Shown here one piece after another: positions 350-12,080 of a DNA stretch of 13,932 bases (positions are counted from its first letter, which is position 1; the number at the start of each line of letters is the position of its first letter). The position numbers were made by a program, and so were the translations under genes. Location of the stretch: the UHGV virus genome UHGV-0136738; one strand, written 5' to 3'. The notes beneath the pieces were generated by a model. That model searched no databases. It saw only the letters and a list, made by a program, of their open reading frames with translations, and was not told the origin of the DNA. The DNA is from a virus.

Positions 350-2242
350 TTATGTCATACGGTAGTGCACCCAAGAAGATATAGCAACACCAACCGGAGT
401 TGGGCGTGTAACGTTTATATTGCTACCTGAAATATACGCTCTGTCAGCGCTAGCAGCGGAATCGTTGGCATACGCGGTGCATATATATGTCTCAGGACCC
501 TTATTAGATATAGTGACTGTCCCACTCCCTCCGCCGGATGCAATAGGAACCTCTATAATTCCGTCTGTATTAACACCGGTATTGCCGACGTAGGTATTCA
601 CCGCAGATTTAATAGCATCTGTTATTGACGTTAGCGTGTTATTACGTATAGTCAGATTGCCGCTAGATTGCAGGTAAAGCGCGGCCCCTAAGATACACCC
701 ACTAACTACACTCCCCGAGGTATTGCTGTAAAAAGCAATAGCGAAGGTATTAACGCCGCCACCAGTCGCTATAGTGCAATCCTTAATCGCCATCTTACCA
801 GCACCTGGCCCTATATTTATCCCGATGTTATTGTTGGTTGCATTTGAGTTCTCCGCGTTTATGTGGAGGCCTTGTAGCAGTTTATGCTGTTGCGCGGACG
901 ACATATTCGGGAACGTGACACCGAAGAATTGGTTAGTACCACTACCATCAGCGGCTATCCATGAGTTTACTAAGCTAAATCCACCATTTACGTTTTGAAC
1001 AACAACACCAGAATCCTGGCAATAATCCAGGTCCAAATTTGATAGATGGATATCGAGGCCGTCGTCGATGTACACCCCGTGTTGGAAGCGTATACACATC
1101 GTTTCGCCATTTACAATAATGGCTTCTGAGCGCACTGGGTTCGACCCATTCCACGTGTAGGTAGTTGGTTGAATACGAATGCCGAAACTATTAGAAACAG
1201 GGCCGCCGTCTCTACTAAAATGACAGCCACTAACCAATACACTGACACATTGGCCGAGTAAATGCAGCCCGATTCGACATGTACCCGCCTGACATGCTAT
1301 AAACTGGGAGTGCCACAAGCCTTGCATAAGATACGCCGTGTCTACCTCATTAACAGAAACGTGGTCAAACTTCCAACCGTACACTTGACGAATTACAGAG
1401 TCGGTAGAAGACAGATTAGTGTCAATACCGTTACATGAGTTATTGCCGGTGATTGATATGTCTTTTAAGTACCTGCCTATAGTATTTGAATCGTAGGCCA
1501 GGCGGAGTACCGCCCCCGTAAGAGTACTTTTTGCTCTAATTTGGGACCCTCTTCCATCCCCGCGGATATTAACTCCAGACGGAACCGTAACGGTGCTTCC
1601 GACATAGTAACCAACAGCATATTTACTAGCAGGTATGTAAACCTCCACACCATTAGGAAACGCCGCAGATACGGCATCGAAGCACGCCTGAAACGCGGCT
1701 GAGTTATCTGTGACCCCGTCGTCCACAACACCAAAATCAAGAACGCTTATGATGTCAGCGTTCTTTTCGTGCTGGCTTCTCGGTGACGAGTCGGTGATGT
1801 CCAGTTTAACCGCAACAAGGGCGTCCCCCATTAGTATGTCAGAGCTATCAGCCAAATTTTCCCGTAAATCCGGGTCAGTTTGCGGCTTCCAGTCGGCGCT
1901 GCCAACCGGATTAAAACTGGCAGGGACCACAACTGGCAGCGTACCAGCGTATGAGTACCACGTCTGGCTAACCGGGTCGTAAACCACTTTGTCGCGGTCA
2001 TTAACTGTCAACGTACCGCCGGTGGAAAAGTCCCATGACACCGGAGAAAAACCTGCGTCGCGTAACACCGCCGGAAGCGTCTTCTGTGTCTGGCCCGTAA
2101 CAGCGTTGGTCGCATAATCGATATCTGCACCGCCAGCGACGCCACCGGACTTACCAGTAATAACCTCGGCTTCAAAAATCTGGTGTTTCTTGGCGGTCTG
2201 TAAATCCGCCAGGCTTAAAACGTCACCACATCCGCTTGACAT
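350..2242 (-). CDS. tailspike / tail fibre protein with pectate-lyase-like right-handed beta-helix (putative polysaccharide depolymerase)
   Basis: 630-aa ORF with ATG at 2242 and SD AAGAGGA about 7 nt upstream. Residues about 165-190, ISVLDFGVVDDGVTDNSAAFQACFDAV, match the signature recalled for pectate-lyase-superfamily beta-helix tailspikes (DFGAxGDGxTDDTxAxQxA). The rest is rich in G/N/S/T-x-V/I repeats typical of beta-helix rungs. It is the last gene of the tail module. Confidence 0.8.
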   Translation of the reverse strand: MSSGCGDVLSLADLQTAKKHQIFEAEVITGKSGGVAGGADIDYATNAVTGQTQKTLPAVLRDAGFSPVSWDFSTGGTLTVNDRDKVVYDPVSQTWYSYAGTLPVVVPASFNPVGSADWKPQTDPDLRENLADSSDILMGDALVAVKLDITDSSPRSQHEKNADIISVLDFGVVDDGVTDNSAAFQACFDAVSAAFPNGVEVYIPASKYAVGYYVGSTVTVPSGVNIRGDGRGSQIRAKSTLTGAVLRLAYDSNTIGRYLKDISITGNNSCNGIDTNLSSTDSVIRQVYGWKFDHVSVNEVDTAYLMQGLWHSQFIACQAGTCRIGLHLLGQCVSVLVSGCHFSRDGGPVSNSFGIRIQPTTYTWNGSNPVRSEAIIVNGETMCIRFQHGVYIDDGLDIHLSNLDLDYCQDSGVVVQNVNGGFSLVNSWIAADGSGTNQFFGVTFPNMSSAQQHKLLQGLHINAENSNATNNNIGINIGPGAGKMAIKDCTIATGGGVNTFAIAFYSNTSGSVVSGCILGAALYLQSSGNLTIRNNTLTSITDAIKSAVNTYVGNTGVNTDGIIEVPIASGGGSGTVTISNKGPETYICTAYANDSAASADRAYISGSNINVTRPTPVGVAISSWVHYRMT

Positions 2243-2254
2243 ATAGAGTCCTCT

Positions 2255-4810
2255 TTAATAAAAACCGTTGCTGAATCCGTCGGAGAAACCGCGACCGAAA
2301 GGCGCGACGCCGTCGTATTTATAGAAACCTTCATCATAGTTGTAGCCCGTAATCTTAACCGTGCGGTCGTCGCCTGGGTCGATTGAAGAGACAACTATCC
2401 TCTGAGCATTATGCCTTGCTTCGTTGCCGAATGAAAACTCAGTTTTTAGTGCACTATTCCCGGTGTAAATGGCTTCCTCTGGTGCGGATAGCATAACCAC
2501 CTCGCGGTCGTGGCCTCCTTTGATAACAGAAATACTCTGTACCGAGCCGTCGCGCTTCTTGAGGATGATTGAGTGGTCGTCCCCTGGGGTGAACGTAACA
2601 GGCTGTGACAGAGTTAGCGTAAGCCCATTAACGGCAACAACATAACCATCCTGAGGCGCGATACGTGAACCTTTAACCACGCTGATTACACCACCCGGTG
2701 TAGCGAGTGCACCCTCTTCGGTAGCTTCGAACTCTACGACAACTTTACTTAACGCGTTGCGCTGGTAGCGACGCCACGCCAGCCAATATGCCTGCTGATA
2801 GTTACGTACGCCCTTCGATTCATATTCCTCGGTGTTTGCTCCGAGTTCTTCCGGGATATAAATCGTTTCCTGTACGTTAGTATCCGGGTCGATGTATGAG
2901 AACGACAGGCTATCATAGGTTGTCGAATCGTTGAACGTGCGCGTCCATTTCTCTGTACCAGTAGTTTTGCTGCGGTGAGTGAACACCATCTCAGGCCCTG
3001 CGACCGGGCGGTCGAAGCGCAGCATAATATCCGCACCTTTACGGTACGCAGTACAGAACACGGCTTCCGCTATGGTCTGAACGATGTCCTGCATGGTTGT
3101 GTCGTAATCGTCGAACGTGTAACAGAATTGCCCGGCTAACTCACTGCCGAAATAGGATTCAATCTCTTCCTGCACAGCGAGTAACTTGTCCATGTTTGCC
3201 GTCGTCAGTTGCAGATTGCCTACTGCGGGGTCGCGGGATAGTCTGATTAGCGACTGAACCGCCTGTGTATTAGGCGTCATTACTGTATCGAATACCCCAT
3301 TGCCGAGGTATTTGTAACACATCTCTGTCGCAATCATGCGTAGTTCCGGGTTGTCGATACTGGCGGCACGCGGCGTCTGTTTGCGGGCACAATGTACGGT
3401 AGTTCGGTTTCCGTAGTGCGGGGTGGTGTCCAGTGACTGACCGTACAGGTTGATGAATGTTATCTCGTCGCTTACCGTTCCGTCGTAGTCCTTATCGAAA
3501 TTCGTTATGCGGCGCATACGGGCGCGGAAACGGGACGCGGTCGGCAATTGCCCGTAAATAGATGTGCCAGCGTAATCGGTGCTATTGCCCGTAATTGTAG
3601 CCCGTACCGTGTAAATGTCGCTCAAAGGGTTGCGTTGAGAGTCAATCATCTGGTACTGGAGTTCTACGGTTACGCTGGTGCGGTTATATCCTCCGTCGTA
3701 TTTGTAGAGGCCGTTCTGCCCAGCTACGTTAACTAGCACACGGTCAACTTCTCCGCGTACCATGTAATACCAGTCGGTCAGGGATACATCATAGGTGTTG
3801 CTAGGGCCGATAAACGTATCTGAACGCTCTGTTAACGTGTACGTCTGCCCGCTAGTCAACGCCGCCCAGTTAGAAGCTCCGTTTACCGCTAATCTTACTT
3901 CGAAGTCGTCAACGTATAAAACCTCAAACGAGCCATTCAGGTTAGTGACATCAGCGACGTCAAAGTTGCTCAGCACCGCGACATCACCAACGCTAAGAAA
4001 TTCAGAAAAAGCAGAGTCACCTGACGGGTCATAGATGTAGCCGGTGTTTGAAATACGTTTAGCTGTACCGTCGGCGCTTGGGTTAGCTCCGATGTCGTTT
4101 GGCGCTTTCAGTACAATACCGTCAACGTCGTCGTTGGAGTATGTAACGTAGAGTTTCTGGTCAATGACGTCGCCGATTTGTAGTTGCGGTGAAGCGGTGT
4201 TGTTCGGAGAAGTATACGGCGCATACACGGCAACAGAGGAACCGGTGATGTCGCTTATCAGGGTGTCCCCCTCCGTGACACCATCAGCCTCGATATGCAG
4301 ATGCCCGCGACCAGCGTCATAGTATGAATACTCCAGCAAAGCACCAGTGGAGTTGAACGCTTTATACGTCTGCATCAGGTCGTTAGGGATTGTCTGCACA
4401 GTCCCGCAGATGTCGTAAGAGCGCTCGTACGGGCGAGGCTTGTTTGAGCGGTCTGTGAGGCTGTTATTCGGAGATGTTGTCTGGTTATTTGTTGCCGTGT
4501 AGTTGGCGTTAGCAGACATGTTAAGACCGAACAGTTTGGCGATAGGCTTGAGGATAAAGCCAAATACCTTACTAACCGCGCTAAGCGCGCCACTACCGGC
4601 GCCCTCAATAATATGGTAAACAGCTTCTTCATCTTTAAGTGCGTCGAAGTCGTCTGTTACGTCAGTATCATCGCCGATTTCACCGAGGTAGACGCGCACG
4701 GGCACACCGTCCGGGATACGGTTAACGACAAACTCCATCGGCATCCCGACGTGTTTTGTACGGTCGAAAGCGCCTTCAGCGTTTCGCGTGTAATGCAGGA
4801 TTATCGCCAA
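2255..4810 (-). CDS. large tail-tip / host-specificity protein (gpJ-like position), putative
   Basis: 851-aa ORF directly upstream of the tailspike and downstream of the NlpC/P60-like gene, the position held by the central fibre/host-specificity protein in lambda- and GTA-like tail modules. Start is ambiguous: TTG at 4810 with GGAG 8 nt upstream, or the first ATG at 4744. No catalytic motif recognised. Confidence 0.5.
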   Translation of the reverse strand: MAIILHYTRNAEGAFDRTKHVGMPMEFVVNRIPDGVPVRVYLGEIGDDTDVTDDFDALKDEEAVYHIIEGAGSGALSAVSKVFGFILKPIAKLFGLNMSANANYTATNNQTTSPNNSLTDRSNKPRPYERSYDICGTVQTIPNDLMQTYKAFNSTGALLEYSYYDAGRGHLHIEADGVTEGDTLISDITGSSVAVYAPYTSPNNTASPQLQIGDVIDQKLYVTYSNDDVDGIVLKAPNDIGANPSADGTAKRISNTGYIYDPSGDSAFSEFLSVGDVAVLSNFDVADVTNLNGSFEVLYVDDFEVRLAVNGASNWAALTSGQTYTLTERSDTFIGPSNTYDVSLTDWYYMVRGEVDRVLVNVAGQNGLYKYDGGYNRTSVTVELQYQMIDSQRNPLSDIYTVRATITGNSTDYAGTSIYGQLPTASRFRARMRRITNFDKDYDGTVSDEITFINLYGQSLDTTPHYGNRTTVHCARKQTPRAASIDNPELRMIATEMCYKYLGNGVFDTVMTPNTQAVQSLIRLSRDPAVGNLQLTTANMDKLLAVQEEIESYFGSELAGQFCYTFDDYDTTMQDIVQTIAEAVFCTAYRKGADIMLRFDRPVAGPEMVFTHRSKTTGTEKWTRTFNDSTTYDSLSFSYIDPDTNVQETIYIPEELGANTEEYESKGVRNYQQAYWLAWRRYQRNALSKVVVEFEATEEGALATPGGVISVVKGSRIAPQDGYVVAVNGLTLTLSQPVTFTPGDDHSIILKKRDGSVQSISVIKGGHDREVVMLSAPEEAIYTGNSALKTEFSFGNEARHNAQRIVVSSIDPGDDRTVKITGYNYDEGFYKYDGVAPFGRGFSDGFSNGFY

Positions 4811-5681: not shown

Positions 5682-7082
5682 TTAACCGTCCACATTAAAG
5701 TCGATACGAGTGATATATTTACTACCCCACGCGGAGTCCGCCTGCGGGATAATGGCGTAGTTATCTACGGCGGGTACGTTTACGGTAGACCCATCGGAAT
5801 AGGTAATGTCGATACTTGTCGCGCCGTTCATGGTTACTTTTGCGGATGCCGTGGTCCGGGTCACAGATGAAGAACCAGTTACTATCGGGGACGTGGCATG
5901 GCCTGATGGTTCCATTTGTATCAACGCGATATTGAACCCGCTGACACCATCCCCCGTGAAGGTGAGGGAGTTAGACGACGACAACATGTTTATCTGCGAA
6001 TAAATCAATCCGCCAGAGTCGTTAGTGTCCGCGGACATTGAAACGTGATACCACCCACCACCGAGATTACTTACAAACGACCTTGAGGTGTCGCCTGATA
6101 TCAAATCACCAGAGGCTAAGTCAACATAGGCATACTGGAAATTATCTAAAGCGGCTGGGTTGCCGATGGTTACCGCTGCTGACTGGTACTCATCTGCTTT
6201 CATAATAGCACTAATAGAGTATCTTGTTTCTTGTTCTGGGGCCTCTGGCTGGTTTATATAGTGGCTCCCTGATACCGACGTTGCGGCTAATTTAGCGGCG
6301 TAAGTTTCTTGGAATAACATCAAAGAACTCGCCGTGGTTGTTGTTCTGGTGCGTGAAAATGATGTAGATAGTAAGTTGTTAGAGTGTTCTACCACGTTGG
6401 TTGAAGCGCTTTCCGGCGGCACACGCCCAACAGCAACCCCATCGATAAACGTAAGGGGCCATTCATCGGCAGCGGACGGCACAAGATTGCCGTTTCGGTT
6501 GATGTAGTAAACCTGCGGCCCGTCATACACAATGCGGTTATCTAGTGTAGACGCCAGAAGGTTAATCGGTGGATAACCCGCGGGACCTTCGTTACTCCAG
6601 ATGCGGGGGAACGTAGTTTCGTAGTTCGCGTATATCTTAAGGAAACTGCCCAGACAGTCGCCGTAGCAACCATACAAATCCGGCAGATTGTTAATCAGGC
6701 ACTGGTTCTCAAGGTCCTGGAACGGCGATTTCTCAGCGGTTGCCGTGAAAGTAATCGTCCAGTTAATGCCATCTTCGGTGGACTCCGCGATGGTTGACGT
6801 AATGGTTACCTGGTAATCCTCGATACCCATGCCGAAGTCGTGCGCCATCCAGAAACTGGACGCGCCGCCGTCTACTTTCTCAAGAAACGCGAGGAAAGTC
6901 TGTCGTCCAAGCGCGGAGGTGATAAGCGTCACACTGACAGGGAACACGTCATAATAGGTGTCACGCCCCTGACGGACGCCACCACCCGCTAAATCAACAC
7001 TCCAGACGTTGTTACGTCTGGTCATCGAGTAGCCTTTCGACACAATAGGCTTAAGGCTACGTGGAAAAAATAAGTCACCCAT
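5682..7082 (-). CDS. minor tail protein (distal tail protein position), putative
   Basis: 466-aa ORF whose ATG at 7082..7080 overlaps the TMP stop codon as TAATG, indicating translational coupling. It is the first gene after the tape measure, where the distal tail or minor tail protein usually sits. Confidence 0.5.
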   Translation of the reverse strand: MGDLFFPRSLKPIVSKGYSMTRRNNVWSVDLAGGGVRQGRDTYYDVFPVSVTLITSALGRQTFLAFLEKVDGGASSFWMAHDFGMGIEDYQVTITSTIAESTEDGINWTITFTATAEKSPFQDLENQCLINNLPDLYGCYGDCLGSFLKIYANYETTFPRIWSNEGPAGYPPINLLASTLDNRIVYDGPQVYYINRNGNLVPSAADEWPLTFIDGVAVGRVPPESASTNVVEHSNNLLSTSFSRTRTTTTASSLMLFQETYAAKLAATSVSGSHYINQPEAPEQETRYSISAIMKADEYQSAAVTIGNPAALDNFQYAYVDLASGDLISGDTSRSFVSNLGGGWYHVSMSADTNDSGGLIYSQINMLSSSNSLTFTGDGVSGFNIALIQMEPSGHATSPIVTGSSSVTRTTASAKVTMNGATSIDITYSDGSTVNVPAVDNYAIIPQADSAWGSKYITRIDFNVDG

Positions 7083-9355
7083 TATTTGAACCCCGGCGCG
7101 TTTCTTGTGGCCTTGCGGGCCTTGCTAATCTTACTGTTACTGTTCTGCAAAGAGGCGGCGACCTGTTCCTCGATGATGATGCGCAGACGCCCTTCATCAT
7201 CCTGCTCGGTGGACACGTTGCCGATTTGCGAACTCGTGTTGTTTACGATGGTAACATTAGATGGGCCGGAAGAAGACCCGTTTTGGCCCATAATCTCTTT
7301 CATTTGTTGCGCGGTGCGTACTCGCGACGCCCCCGCGGGCATAATTACCTCAGGTTTACCGCGTTCGGCGATGGTGGAAGCCTGCCCCGCGGATAACTGG
7401 CCCCCCTGTTCACGCGCGGACCTGATAGCGGAAACCTGCGCCATACCGGCCCCAACAGCAGCGGCAGCGGCTACTGGTGCAAGGAATGGCCCAACAACCG
7501 GGATAGCAGCTGTTGACTTATACGCTTCAATAGCTGCAGTATACGTAGCGATAGTGGCCTGCACAATCGCGAACGCCTTATAAGCGCCGGATGCTTCACC
7601 TAACGCGGATCCAATGTTAGAAGCCATGTTACCAAAAGCTGTTGCCGTTGCGTCAGCACGCTTGGTTGCGTACTGCTCGTTGATGGCGCTAAGCGCAGCC
7701 TGATATTGCTTCTCGCTAATAAGACCTTGTTCTCGGTACTTATCGGCTACCGCCAGTTTCTGCTGTTCCTGAATATCCAGAAGCTCAAGCTCGGTGGCGT
7801 TCTGGCCCATAATCTGAGCCATGAAATCCTCACCTTTCTGTTGCTTATCCTGGGCTTCTTTCTGGCGTTTATCCAGTTCATCCTGCCGTTTTTGCCCTGC
7901 TTCAAGAACAATGGCGGTTTTAGCCTGTTCGTACTCTTTTAACGATAGCGCACCCTGACTGTAGAACTCTTTTGCTTTAGCCAGTTTCTGCTGCTCCTGG
8001 GCGTCAATAGCCTTTAACTCGTCATTGTTCTGACGGGCCAAAGTGTCGAGGTAATCTTGTGCCTGATTACGCAATTGTTCTGCTTTCTTAGCGGCTGCTT
8101 TTGCTGCTTTATCGTCGGTTTTCCCCGTCCCACCAGTCCCGCCTTTTTTATCAACAAGGCTGGCTAAGTCGATTTCTTGCTTCTTGCGCTCGTCATACTG
8201 CTTGCGCTGTTCCTCAATTTCTTTCTTACGCTGCTTAGACCTGTCGGTAATGGCCTGGGACTCCGCCTCTGCGCGTTTTATGCTGGCGGCATATGCGGCG
8301 TCGGCCTCCGCAGTCAGGTTTTTAAATGTGAGCGCTGCCGTTTTGCTCGGGTCAAACACGTCAGCAAGAGTCTGGCCTAACGCTACGGCATAATCATCAA
8401 TGCGCTGAAACCATGCAATAACCTCGTGGAATGTCTGCTGAATGTCAGGCAACCACTCACGGATAGCGTCAGGGATTGTGCCAAGCGAATCTGACATGTT
8501 CGCCGATTTGTCTTCTGTGTCGTACGCCAAATCATTCAAGGCGTCAGAAATAAACTTGAACGACTCATTGAACAGCGTCGCCCAATCCTGGAGTGTGGAT
8601 GCTATCTCATTAGACGCAATGGCATCGGTGAGCGCAGTTACTGCGTCTTCGGCCGCCGCGGCTTGCTCACCTACGGCGTCGCCAAAACCAGACTGCGCTA
8701 CCGCAAGAACAAGACCGTCAAATGAGTCAGCAAGGCTCGACAACTGCCCGTCAAGGGTCTTCGAGCGCGTCTCCATCGCTCCGGCGAAATCAGTATTGCC
8801 GATGTTTAGCAGGTATTTCTGAATCTCTTCGGAGTTCTTCTTGACCGTGGTCGTTACGCCACGGAACGTGAACGAAACTGTGTCCGCCTGTTGGGAAGAC
8901 TTGATGCCGAACTCTTTTAAGCGCTCGAATTCAAATGTACTGGCGTCAGCAACTGCCTCAATCATCTGGTTAAGGTCTTTACCCATCGCAGCCGCAGTGT
9001 TGCCGTAGGAGATTAACGCCTCTTTGCTGGGGTTAAGCCCGAGCGCCACGAGCTTGGTAAATCCCTCTACAGCCTGGTTAAGCCCGTATGGTGTTTCTTT
9101 AGCAAACTGTTGCAGGACGCTGAAAGCCTTTGCCGCGTTCTCGGCGCTTCCGGTCATTGTGATGAGTCCGGAGTTCAGCTTATCGAAGTTGCGCTGAGAG
9201 TCCACCAGCGCGCTGAACACCTGTTTAGCGGTTTCCAGACTGACAACGGCAGCTGCCGCCGCCCCCGCCGCCTTGGTAAGCCCGTTCAGTTGAGATGTTG
9301 TTTTATCGACGCCGGTCGAAGATACTCGTACTATCAAACTAGCGGTATCAGCCAT
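7082..9355 (-). CDS. tail tape measure protein
   Basis: Long ORF, 757 aa from ATG at 9355 (AAGGT SD about 8 nt upstream; the ORF track extends to TTG at 9370). Ala-rich N-terminus, a long charged coiled-coil centre with two internal repeats (residues about 449-484 and 526-560), a hydrophobic Ala/Gly/Val-rich segment near residues 595-650, and location directly after two chaperone ORFs. Confidence 0.85.
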   Translation of the reverse strand: MADTASLIVRVSSTGVDKTTSQLNGLTKAAGAAAAAVVSLETAKQVFSALVDSQRNFDKLNSGLITMTGSAENAAKAFSVLQQFAKETPYGLNQAVEGFTKLVALGLNPSKEALISYGNTAAAMGKDLNQMIEAVADASTFEFERLKEFGIKSSQQADTVSFTFRGVTTTVKKNSEEIQKYLLNIGNTDFAGAMETRSKTLDGQLSSLADSFDGLVLAVAQSGFGDAVGEQAAAAEDAVTALTDAIASNEIASTLQDWATLFNESFKFISDALNDLAYDTEDKSANMSDSLGTIPDAIREWLPDIQQTFHEVIAWFQRIDDYAVALGQTLADVFDPSKTAALTFKNLTAEADAAYAASIKRAEAESQAITDRSKQRKKEIEEQRKQYDERKKQEIDLASLVDKKGGTGGTGKTDDKAAKAAAKKAEQLRNQAQDYLDTLARQNNDELKAIDAQEQQKLAKAKEFYSQGALSLKEYEQAKTAIVLEAGQKRQDELDKRQKEAQDKQQKGEDFMAQIMGQNATELELLDIQEQQKLAVADKYREQGLISEKQYQAALSAINEQYATKRADATATAFGNMASNIGSALGEASGAYKAFAIVQATIATYTAAIEAYKSTAAIPVVGPFLAPVAAAAAVGAGMAQVSAIRSAREQGGQLSAGQASTIAERGKPEVIMPAGASRVRTAQQMKEIMGQNGSSSGPSNVTIVNNTSSQIGNVSTEQDDEGRLRIIIEEQVAASLQNSNSKISKARKATRNAPGFK
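7691..8026 (-). repeat. internal duplication within the tape measure gene
   Basis: Peptides ELKAIDAQEQQKLAKAKEFYSQGALSLKEYEQAK and ELELLDIQEQQKLAVADKYREQGLISEKQYQAAL lie 76 codons apart. Their DNA cores gccagtttctgctgctcctg (7980..7999) and gccagtttctgctgttcctg (7752..7771) are 19/20 identical. Confidence 0.6.
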
Positions 9356-9680
9356 GATTTCTACCTTCAAAGATTGCTTCTAGGCCCATGATAATGTCTA
9401 TCTCAAACAGGCTAAGCTGTTTCTGTGTGACGTCGAGATAGGCTTTCAGGTCTTGCCACGTTACGGATTCTCTTGCAAACAATACTACCGCGTCATCGCG
9501 CACGTGTCGCGTAAACTTAATGTCGCAATACGTTTCAAAGGTGGATATGAAAAGGGGCGGGCATTCTGGCCCACCCCGTCGCGCTGCACGTTTTTTCTTA
9601 TCGATTACACCCATTGCGATAAGCGCCTGTTCGTGACCGTCGGCTATAGAATCAAATTCTCTGATTTTATGCTTATCCAC
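9348..9680 (-). CDS. tail assembly chaperone, T-like distal ORF (possibly made as a G-T fusion by -1 frameshift)
   Basis: 110-aa ORF from GTG at 9680 with no convincing SD. The same frame is open upstream to 9731 and overlaps the end of the 139-aa ORF in the -1 frame. Its TGA at 9350..9348 lies just inside the TMP start (ATGGCTGA). Confidence 0.5.
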   Translation of the reverse strand: MDKHKIREFDSIADGHEQALIAMGVIDKKKRAARRGGPECPPLFISTFETYCDIKFTRHVRDDAVVLFARESVTWQDLKAYLDVTQKQLSLFEIDIIMGLEAIFEGRNHG

Positions 9681-10132: not shown

Positions 10133-10239
10133 TCTTTAATCCTTTGGTTAAGAGGTTACTGGTTAAAGGAAATGCGCCAGACGGGAACCACCCGCTTTTC
10201 GTGTGCGACACTAGGCGCAAAATTATTCTAACACACTAC

Positions 10240-10268
10240 TTGCACACCCCAATATAATAGCGTACTAT
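10240..10268 (+). promoter_or_regulatory. candidate sigma70-like promoter for the plus-strand cassette
   Basis: TTGCAC (10240..10245), 17-bp spacer, TACTAT (10263..10268), about 30 nt upstream of ATG 10300. A perfect TATAAT at 10253..10258 overlaps but lacks a properly spaced -35. Weak matches only. Confidence 0.2.
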
Positions 10269-10299
10269 TCACTTACACCAACAATGAAGGGGTTTTAAA

Positions 10300-10491
10300 A
10301 TGTCCAGTTTACCAATTTCCTTAATCCTGTTTGCACTGCTCGCGTACTTTGCGCCTTTTTTAGTCGCCTATTTCCGTAACCATAAAGCAAAGCTGGCGAT
10401 ATTTATGGCTAACTTATTTCTCGGGTGGGTTCTGTTGCCGTGGGTATTCATTTTAATCTGGGCTTGCAACTCGAACGTGAAAGAGAAGTAG
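10300..10491 (+). CDS. small membrane protein resembling the superinfection-immunity (Imm_superinfect) family
   Basis: 63-aa ORF with SD GAAGGGG 7 nt upstream of ATG. Two predicted transmembrane helices. Sequence YFAPFLVAYFRNHKAKLAIFMANLFLGWVLLPWVFILIWAC fits the pattern recalled for that family (YF-P, A-x-R-x-H, IF-x-NL-x-LGW, W, LIWA). Confidence 0.5.
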   Translation: MSSLPISLILFALLAYFAPFLVAYFRNHKAKLAIFMANLFLGWVLLPWVFILIWACNSNVKEK

Positions 10492-10529: not shown

Positions 10530-11270
10530 ATGGCCCAGAAGAAAATAACCGACGAGCAGTTACAGGAAGAATTGAACGCCGGGGTGAAGAACGTAGATAT
10601 CGCCCGTAAATACGGCATCTCAGACCGCGTTATCCGAATCCGTAAAGCGAAGCTGGCTAAGAAAGGCGTAGGCCACGGGCGTGACGTAAGCCACCTTGTA
10701 CCAGACGGCTACAAGATTAAGGGTACGTCGTCTCTGGTGGACGAGTTCGGTAACACTAAGTTGCAGTGGGTTAAGACAGACACCGATGCCGAACGTCAGG
10801 TTGAGTTGATGAAAGCCGTAGTCGAAGGCATGAAGTCGGAGATTACTCCCGTTCCGCCAGTTAAGGCCGCCCGGGCTAAACGTGACGACAAGCTGCTTAA
10901 CCTGTACACCGTGTCTGATTTCCATCTCGGTATGTTAGCCTGGGCTGACGAGAGCGGCGACGACTGGGATATGAAAATCGCGGAGGACTTATTTTCACGA
11001 TGGTTTGATGCCGCGTTTCAGAAAGCACCGGATGCAGGTACGGGGGTTATTAATCTTCTTGGCGACTTAGCGCACTTCGATAGTCTTGATGCCGTTACAC
11101 CAGCAAGCGGTCATGTCCTTGACGCCGACACGCGTTACCAGAAACTTGTTCGCTATATGATTCGCATGGTACGCCGTGTTGTCGATATGGCACTGGTTAA
11201 ACATAAAACTGTTCGCTTGCTTATCGTGCAAGGGAACCACGACGAATCCGGGATGATTTGGCTGGCGTAG
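10530..11270 (+). CDS. HTH domain fused to N-terminal half of a calcineurin-like (SbcD/Mre11-type) metallophosphoesterase, ending at an in-frame TAG
   Basis: ATG at 10530 with strong SD GAGGAAG 5 nt upstream; the ORF-track GTG at 10425 overlaps the preceding gene. Residues about 17-42 (GVKNVDIARKYGISDRVIRIRKAKLA) look like a helix-turn-helix. Phosphoesterase motifs I (VSDFHLG), II (GDLAHFD) and III (GNHDE) follow. TAG at 11268..11270. Confidence 0.7.
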   Translation: MAQKKITDEQLQEELNAGVKNVDIARKYGISDRVIRIRKAKLAKKGVGHGRDVSHLVPDGYKIKGTSSLVDEFGNTKLQWVKTDTDAERQVELMKAVVEGMKSEITPVPPVKAARAKRDDKLLNLYTVSDFHLGMLAWADESGDDWDMKIAEDLFSRWFDAAFQKAPDAGTGVINLLGDLAHFDSLDAVTPASGHVLDADTRYQKLVRYMIRMVRRVVDMALVKHKTVRLLIVQGNHDESGMIWLA

Positions 11271-11660
11271 ATGTTCAGCACACTGTACGACAACGAGCCT
11301 CGTGTGTTCGTCGATACGTCGCCGGATGTGTATAAGATGGTGCAACACGGCAAAACGACGCTGTTCTTTCATCACGGGCATAAGGCACGCTTCGACGCAA
11401 TCGAGCCTGTTATGATTGCCAAGTTCCGCAAAGCGTTCGGCGAGAGCGTCTACAGCTACGCGCATGTAGGCCACCTCCACCACCAGAAGATTGTCGAAAG
11501 CCGTAACATGATTGTCGAACAACACCGCACCTTAGCCGCTAAAGACGCATACGCCTCCCGTGGCGGATGGATGTCAGGCCGCGGGGCAAATGTAATTACT
11601 TATAGCGCAGAATATGGCGAGGTCGCACGTTTAACTATTTCACCGGAGATGCTGGGATGA
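11271..11660 (+). CDS. C-terminal half of the same metallophosphoesterase (motifs IV-VI), same frame as the upstream ORF
   Basis: ATG at 11271 directly follows the TAG and is in the same frame (11271 minus 10425 is divisible by 3). Contains FFHHGH and AHVGHLHH, matching the downstream His and GHxH motifs of the fold. Ends with ATGA overlap into the next ORF. Confidence 0.65.
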   Translation: MFSTLYDNEPRVFVDTSPDVYKMVQHGKTTLFFHHGHKARFDAIEPVMIAKFRKAFGESVYSYAHVGHLHHQKIVESRNMIVEQHRTLAAKDAYASRGGWMSGRGANVITYSAEYGEVARLTISPEMLG

Positions 11661-11887
11661 CTTCAAAATACGACAGAACTATGACAAATATACACGGCAG
11701 CACGATGACTGTTGATGTCTATGATGTCCTCCGCGCTTTCGACATCCGAGACCCGGCGCTGCAGCACGCATTGAAAAAGTTGCTGTGTATGGGTCTACGC
11801 GGGCACAAAGACACAGGCACGGACTTAGAAGAGGCAATAGAAAGTCTGGAGAAGTTACGAGAGTACCGGAGTAATATTGATGAGTGA
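11657..11887 (+). CDS. hypothetical protein (76 aa)
   Basis: ORF whose start overlaps the upstream stop as ATGA, consistent with translational coupling inside the cassette. No motif recognised. Confidence 0.45.
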   Translation: MTSKYDRTMTNIHGSTMTVDVYDVLRAFDIRDPALQHALKKLLCMGLRGHKDTGTDLEEAIESLEKLREYRSNIDE

Positions 11888-12060: not shown

Positions 12061-12080
12061 AAGGCCCCTTTCGGGGCCTT
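12061..12080. terminator. Rho-independent terminator hairpin, probably bidirectional
   Basis: Perfect 8-bp stem aaggcccc / ggggcctt with loop tttc, followed by agttttatg on the plus strand and preceded by gaaaaa (a T-run for the minus strand). Lies between the plus-strand cassette and the minus-strand major tail gene ending at 12085. Confidence 0.65.

Follow-up and report, generated by a model that had tools for sequence, protein, structure and literature searches.

We analysed a 13,932-nucleotide (nt) stretch of viral DNA (UHGV virus genome UHGV-0136738; "the window" below), in which a short gene, imm, encodes a 63-amino-acid (aa) protein that almost certainly belongs to the PF14373 family of superinfection-immunity proteins, the family of phage T4 Imm. 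By analogy with its T4 relative, this protein probably sits in the inner membrane of the infected cell and blocks the genome entry of superinfecting relatives, probably by way of their tape measure protein (TMP). T4 Imm is a small inner-membrane protein that keeps a superinfecting T-even genome from crossing the cytoplasmic membrane, and since the window protein is placed in the same family, a block of DNA entry by incoming phages is the best-supported role that we can infer for it. The window comes from a Kagunavirus (Guernseyvirinae), a K1G-like small siphovirus. Coordinates of all features are collected in Table 1.

In Pfam, Imm matched PF14373 with an E-value of 7.5e-13 and 48.6 bits (cutoff 27.9), its residues 16-56 aligning to positions 2-42 of the 42-position profile, and the only other Pfam hit was a sub-threshold one to DUF3302. 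An earlier reading made from the letters alone (the sequence-only reading) had named the superinfection-immunity family, and the Pfam score bears this out. The protein also matched PHROG 1039, "immunity to superinfection" (E=1.5e-22). The size of the family became visible through an exhaustive HMMER search, which gave 7,659 clusters (50% identity) at E<=0.001, where a word-indexed homologue search had given 9 close relatives only; look-ups of the distant clusters yielded almost no names or context. Among the best 150 of the 7,659 clusters, positions Y16, F17, P19, A23, R26, H28, I34, N38, G42, W43, W48 and W54 are 92-100% conserved (R26 and W43 at 96-98%), and every one of these residues is present in Imm here. 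So are all the motifs that the sequence-only reading had singled out, namely Y16-F17-x-P19, R26-N27-H28, N38-L-F-L-G-W43, W48 and L52-I-W-A55.

The product of imm reads MSSLPISLILFALLAYFAPFLVAYFRNHKAKLAIFMANLFLGWVLLPWVFILIWACNSNVKEK. A comparison of 17 distinct orthologous coding sequences of one allele type (type A, see below) gave a ratio of nonsynonymous to synonymous divergence (dN/dS) of 0.04 (dS 0.35, dN 0.014), the conserved C-terminal two-thirds gave 0.03-0.07 in all comparisons, and the open reading frame (ORF) was intact in all 37 related loci, including those of Jerseyvirus, where synonymous sites are near saturation (pS 0.74). Judged from this pattern of substitution, imm is a real gene under strong purifying selection. 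One may of course ask whether so short an ORF, lying in a regulatory spacer, is a gene at all, as it has only 63 codons and AT-rich codons for hydrophobic residues can appear by chance. Yet a chance ORF would not be expected to combine the Pfam match, the low dN/dS at this level of synonymous divergence, a good Shine-Dalgarno sequence and an intact frame at every locus, and the probability that no gene exists here is practically nil; the pattern of conservation and selection can be taken to refute it. Many GenBank records give instead a 68-aa Imm that begins at an upstream ATG (MKGFK...). We rejected this longer form: a 1-nt indel in a G-run (window 10285-10299; positions 3982-3996 of locus L001) shifts the upstream ATG out of frame in this window and in three other loci, and the start of the 63-aa form is therefore the one that appears conserved. 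The upstream ATGAAGGGG appears to serve as the ribosome-binding region and behaves as non-coding sequence. A terminator-like hairpin inside imm (10342-10354), with a stem of 5 base pairs (bp) within the coding sequence, was likewise set aside as a chance match.

Hydropathy analysis (Kyte-Doolittle, 19-aa windows above 1.6) marks Imm as hydrophobic at about residues 4-25 and 32-57, with a basic loop, R26-N-H-K-A-K31, between the two stretches. The ORF and this profile agree with the 63-aa protein with two hydrophobic helices of the sequence-only reading, but the structure model splits the second stretch. Built with AlphaFold 2 (AF2) on a 71-sequence family alignment, that model (pLDDT 96, pTM 0.78) has helices at residues 4-16, 18-25 (with a kink at P19), 31-41 and 45-55, and a break at G42-W43; a shallow 10-sequence alignment gave a plain two-helix hairpin with a pLDDT of 76. 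The second hydrophobic stretch is probably a helix-break-helix unit, and Imm is predicted to be a small membrane protein with an N-terminal transmembrane helix followed by a hydrophobic helical core. At TM-scores of about 0.7, the model had its best fold matches in further phage proteins labelled "superinfection immunity", and the Protein Data Bank (PDB) returned neither a sequence match to the Imm profile nor a Foldseek match to the model.

The T4 protein, taken from the imm gene in NC_000866, scores 58.2 bits on PF14373, and a single BLASTP comparison of the two proteins gave 28% identity over 54 aa without gaps (E=2e-10). Residues R33 and W50 of T4 Imm align to R26 and W43 here, the latter falling in the predicted helix break. 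It has been reported that the T4 mutants R33A and W50A have reduced exclusion, that T4 Imm and a fragment of gp29, the T4 tape measure protein, co-purify, that the Imm helix-connecting loop with W50 faces a hydrophobic patch of the TMP, that the Imm N-terminal helix makes no contact with the TMP, and that AlphaFold 3 (AF3) fails on the Imm-TMP pair (preprint 10.64898/2026.03.06.709160). The G42-W43 break of our model would correspond to the W50 loop at the TMP interface. If the window protein works in parallel to what is reported for T4 Imm and gp29, it would be made during lytic infection, as T4 Imm is, would insert in the cytoplasmic membrane through its N-terminal helix, and would offer its conserved core (helix 31-41, the G42-W43 break and helix 45-55) to the TMP of a superinfecting Guernseyvirinae phage; the TMP would thereby be kept from opening a channel in the inner membrane, and the incoming genome would stay out of the cytoplasm.

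The TMP of the window has a single strongly hydrophobic segment, at about aa 619-645 (Kyte-Doolittle up to 1.95), and this lies within its most conserved stretch, aa 571-690, where both Kagunavirus types are 88-99% identical to the window and Jerseyvirus 74-90%, compared with 20-50% for the N-terminal two-thirds. The conserved TMP segment parallels the conserved Imm core, a parallel that is compatible with TMP engagement but no proof of it. Across Kagunavirus, Imm residues 28-59 hardly vary, and Jerseyvirus departs from them at only about six positions, so that one would expect exclusion to cover the whole subfamily rather than to be strain-specific.

Several points weigh against an exclusion function. 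It is carried over from T4 Imm at the low identity given above, across the divide between a myovirus and a siphovirus; in this very large family, T4 Imm is the sole member that we found with functional data, so that membership is no guarantee of function; and the TMP-binding mechanism comes from one preprint. In the literature searched, members of the Kagunavirus/Jerseyvirus clade have annotation-level mentions only, with no exclusion phenotype for any of them, and zero matches were returned by a PADLOC scan of the cassette proteins and by an NCBIfam scan of Imm. Residue P47 (window 10438-10440) departs from the family, in which this position is Gly in 91% of the 150 representatives and Pro in 2%. 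The substitution is fixed throughout Kagunavirus and Jerseyvirus and stands just past the functionally implicated Trp. Finally, while transcription of the orthologue K1B4_045, which adjoins the chaperone gene K1B4_046, during Kagunavirus infection counts in favour of the function, this orthologue was classed "late", not early (PMC12645636), in a transcriptome whose timing classes are weak evidence, the RNA-seq having sampled to 120 min against a latent period of about 30 min.

One may therefore also consider that Imm is a PF14373 membrane protein with some other job in infection, such as modulating host inner-membrane proteins, protecting the envelope or timing lysis, and has no part in phage exclusion. 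The family has thousands of members without a tested function and a reported phenotype for T4 Imm alone, Imm is small and hydrophobic like class II holins, and the paper that classed the Kagunavirus orthologue as late loosely terms it "involved in cell lysis" (PMC12645636). That statement, however, comes without data and refers to nothing but the T4 imm paper. Moreover, apart from PF14373 and the sub-threshold DUF3302, Imm has no holin match in Pfam or PHROG, the related phage Bas74 encodes its holins, endolysin and spanins elsewhere (holins and endolysin about 26 kb away, in another module), and Imm here keeps the residues that exclusion by T4 Imm reportedly requires. We consider such another job rather unlikely, and a class II holin or pinholin in particular was rejected on the lack of a holin-family match and the distance to the Bas74 lysis genes. 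The sequence-only reading had pictured a different setting for exclusion, with imm as a prophage-expressed factor on an insert in the tail module; in such a setting the insert would be moron-like, the phage temperate and the lysogen protected. Some PF14373 members do occur in temperate phages, as seen in the fold match to a protein of Mycobacterium phage U2, and PHROG files its family under "moron, auxiliary metabolic gene and host takeover". In contrast, the window is a Kagunavirus, a search of 5,426 complete E. coli genomes with the cassette came back empty, and a single-protein search of 185,579 species-representative genomes gave as its sole match a 13-kb Jerseyvirus-like scaffold, which is not an integrated element. 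Bas74, whose genome is complete, encodes a polymerase and a helicase-primase of its own and has a separate lysis cassette, with no integrase and no repressor; the BASEL study treated such phages as lytic, glycan-dependent siphoviruses (PMC11990801), and they are described as lytic elsewhere (PMC12919940). Because the complete E. coli genomes searched gave no match and a fully annotated relative has no integrase, the window phage is not a prophage but virulent. Nor is the cassette a recent insert: in 37 of 37 Kagunavirus and Jerseyvirus loci, imm has the tail assembly chaperone genes on one side and the exonuclease gene on the other, only the distal end of the cassette varying, and it is therefore a fixed feature of the subfamily inside the tail module. 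Expression from a prophage is thus contradicted, and we give it very little probability.

A further possibility arises from the mosaic structure of this region. In Kagunavirus, the N-terminal two-thirds of the TMP and both chaperones occur as two alleles, types A and B, with about 55% protein identity, the type B and Jerseyvirus proteins being equally distant from type A. Codons 1-21 of imm, which encode the N-terminal helix, also come in two alleles, about 50-60% identical (MSSLPxSLILFALLAYFAP and MTGITMFFLIIIVLVYFIP). The 170-bp spacer between these variable islands is 90-100% identical in both types, and conservation resumes past Imm codon 21. The allele types of the two islands were matched in 24 of 26 IMG/VR loci (the exceptions being L004 and L023), and 60 GenBank records, a spread sample of the 117 that matched, comprised 21 A/A, 36 nonA/nonA and three recombinants (fEg-Eco19, EcoPhCCP1 and UTEC10). 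From this co-occurrence one could propose an allele-specific immunity, in which the type of the Imm N-terminal helix is matched to that of the TMP and chaperones, like colicin-immunity pairs, and each phage excludes one TMP type. However, the islands are only about 170 bp apart and linkage alone would suffice, many of the allele-typed loci come from one metagenome and are not independent, and recombinants of both directions are viable, three of them being isolated GenBank phages. Furthermore, the N-terminal helix is the very part of T4 Imm reported not to touch the TMP (preprint 10.64898/2026.03.06.709160), and both types conserve the likely interface, formed by the Imm core and the hydrophobic segment of the TMP. 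The association is most simply explained by tight physical linkage, and allele-specific immunity appears improbable; were it true, Kagunaviruses would fall into type-specific exclusion groups and would offer a natural siphovirus system for mapping how the Imm family recognises TMPs.

Among genomes, Kagunavirus NRG857CP3 matches the window best, with about 90% nt identity; K1G-like phages stand at about 88-90%, and about a hundred Escherichia phages match at 87-90%. An identical 63-aa Imm is encoded in NRG857CP3 (OZ035734), and many others have one of 94-98% identity. The orthologue is already labelled "superinfection immunity protein" or "immunity to superinfection" in K1G, K1ind2, Bas74 (Bas74_0023), fTaEco03, LPSE1 and many Salmonella Jerseyviruses, and with an identical protein public the gene call itself adds nothing to what is known at annotation level. 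The 13-kb scaffold mentioned above (L039, NZ_JACVEL010000023.1) sits in an assembly of Taishania pollutisoli (Bacteroidota), with tape measure, chaperone, imm, exonuclease and major tail genes of the Jerseyvirus type; we regard it as most probably a phage contaminant of that assembly, not a prophage. Elsewhere in the window, the distal three-quarters of a 630-aa tailspike gene (350-1880, minus strand) were left uncovered by relatives, NRG857CP3 aligning from 1879 and Bas74 from 2055, a pattern that suggests a swapped receptor-binding domain. Such swaps are usual in glycan-targeting phages of this kind.

The sequence-only reading had placed imm first in its cassette, and this is indeed its position: after a divergent spacer it leads three plus-strand genes that stand amid minus-strand tail genes, the others being an exonuclease gene and a 76-aa ORF. 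The exonuclease gene is read as two ORFs, of 246 and 129 aa, whose products match positions 1-260 and 262-389 of the 390-position PHROG 704 profile. In Bas74 the codon at the site of the stop is GAG (Glu), and the gene is intact (1131 bp, 376 aa); the TAG in the window could be a nonsense mutation, a sequencing error or an amber codon tolerated in the isolation host. Against PHROG profiles of 235-246 positions (phrog_2452; phrog_17613, "ATPase"), the product of the 76-aa ORF aligns to the C-terminal ~70 residues alone. In relatives such as K1G, RP180 and phiWAO78-1, genes for a polynucleotide kinase-phosphatase and an ATPase separate the exonuclease gene from the major tail gene, so this distal end of the cassette looks like a deletion-prone variable region. 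Between the cassette and the convergent major tail gene lies a perfect 8-bp hairpin, AAGGCCCC-TTTC-GGGGCCTT, likely a bidirectional terminator that ends both; the downstream chaperone and tape-measure genes would therefore probably need a promoter of their own in the 10133-10299 spacer.

As for a promoter of imm itself, the promoter-like sequence that the sequence-only reading had credited to the cassette was borne out only in part. A consensus scan upstream of imm gave nothing usable, its one hit (CTTACA-18-TAAAAT, 10272-10301) running into the start codon. At 10253-10258 there is a perfect TATAAT, but no acceptable -35 element stands 16-18 nt upstream of it and Jerseyvirus does not conserve it, so we rejected it as a -10 element. 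What stands is a weak candidate only, TTGCAC-N17-TACTAT, whose hexamers and spacing are conserved in Kagunavirus and which reads TTGCAT-N17-TATTAT in Jerseyvirus.

The divergent spacer also holds a structured RNA on the minus strand, resembling the int-alpA motif, an RNA of unknown function. It ends 25 nt 5' of the start codon of the tail assembly chaperone gene and is not part of imm. Its margin over the Rfam gathering score is small, and among six related loci one also passes, being identical across the region. All the same, Kagunavirus and Jerseyvirus preserve the three-helix structure, 99.5% of the cells in its 14 pairs being paired against 33-62% in slid controls; three pairs show compensatory changes, from essentially two clades, and the G-U pairs are legal on the minus strand only. 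The motif and spacer are 94% identical among Kagunaviruses, in contrast to about 50% for both flanks in type-B phages and to imm, whose synonymous sites differ by 28-58%. Apparently, the spacer is so conserved because of this minus-strand RNA element, which would share a divergent control region with imm. A possible extended -10 element (TGTTAGAAT, the reverse complement of 10225-10233) would start transcription near the 5' end of the motif. The Bas74 genome, which lacks an integrase, encodes a 60-aa protein annotated "excisionase and transcriptional regulator" (Bas74_0052; 36139-36321 of locus L040), of a type of small protein that we take to be AlpA/Xis-like. AlpA can act as a transcription antiterminator, and one could conceive of a link between Bas74_0052 and the int-alpA-like motif that heads the tail operon.

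Table 1. Features of the imm locus (positions in the window unless stated otherwise)
Feature	Position	Strand	Remarks
Tape measure protein gene	7082..9370	-	762-aa TMP; proposed Imm target class in superinfecting relatives (inference)
Mosaic region	7082-10365		Loci L004, L018-L026
int-alpA-like RNA motif (Rfam RF02996)	10157..10221	-	36.6 bits vs gathering 35.8; full model 1-71
Candidate weak sigma-70-type promoter TTGCAC-N17-TACTAT	10240..10268	+	7/12 consensus positions, below scan threshold
Shine-Dalgarno AAGGGG	10287..10292	+	7 nt 5' of imm ATG; read from sequence
imm ORF	10300..10491	+	ATG start, 63 codons + stop; 63-aa PF14373 (Imm_superinfect) membrane protein
DNA repair exonuclease / metallophosphoesterase gene (PHROG 704)	10530..11660	+	Split by in-frame TAG at 11268-11270
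76-aa ORF	11657..11887	+	Overlaps exonuclease stop; third cassette gene; also in Bas74
G+C-rich hairpin	12061..12080		8 pairs (6 G-C), T-runs on both strands; terminator scan, both strands

The gene is of modest practical importance. Phage-therapy work isolates Kagunaviruses, and they also serve as small chassis in synthetic biology; if Imm is active, members of one subfamily in a cocktail would co-infect and recombine less. If T4 Imm acts by binding the TMP, its 63-aa homologue here would be close to a minimal family core. In a 44-kb siphovirus, with the chaperone genes about 300 bp from imm and the tape measure gene about 900 bp from it, this locus would, if the proposed role is true, lend itself well as a second system in which to ask whether siphoviruses share the myovirus mechanism.

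With the annotated Kagunavirus and Jerseyvirus orthologues the window gene shares its locus, and there is no difference of substance beyond the 68-aa form in some records. A functional analogue is gp15 of HK97, which is not known to be a PF14373 member and is expressed from the prophage of that temperate phage; Cumby and colleagues reportedly described in 2012 that it excludes superinfecting phages through the tape measure protein. Like the proposed Imm, gp15 is a small siphovirus inner-membrane protein with a TMP-dependent block of genome entry (summarised in preprint 10.64898/2026.03.06.709160). Spackle (Sp), the other superinfection-exclusion factor of T4 and likewise from a virulent phage, is a periplasmic inhibitor of the gp5 tail lysozyme (PMC7677548); its fold, location and mechanism differ from those of the window Imm, and similarity is not expected. 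The nearest comparison remains T4 Imm (83 aa), which also comes from a virulent phage and belongs to the same Pfam family, both proteins having an N-terminal hydrophobic helix and then a conserved core with a helix break at an invariant Trp. The window protein is 20 residues shorter and lacks the polar C-terminal tail of T4 Imm, and it is nearer the family consensus, with H28, N38 and G42 where T4 has S, S and N. Its phage is a siphovirus with a different tape measure protein, whereas T4 is a myovirus. The window gene has its place in the tail module, next to the genes for the chaperones and the TMP, while imm of T4 is found between genes 42 and 43, in a group of early genes for DNA metabolism.

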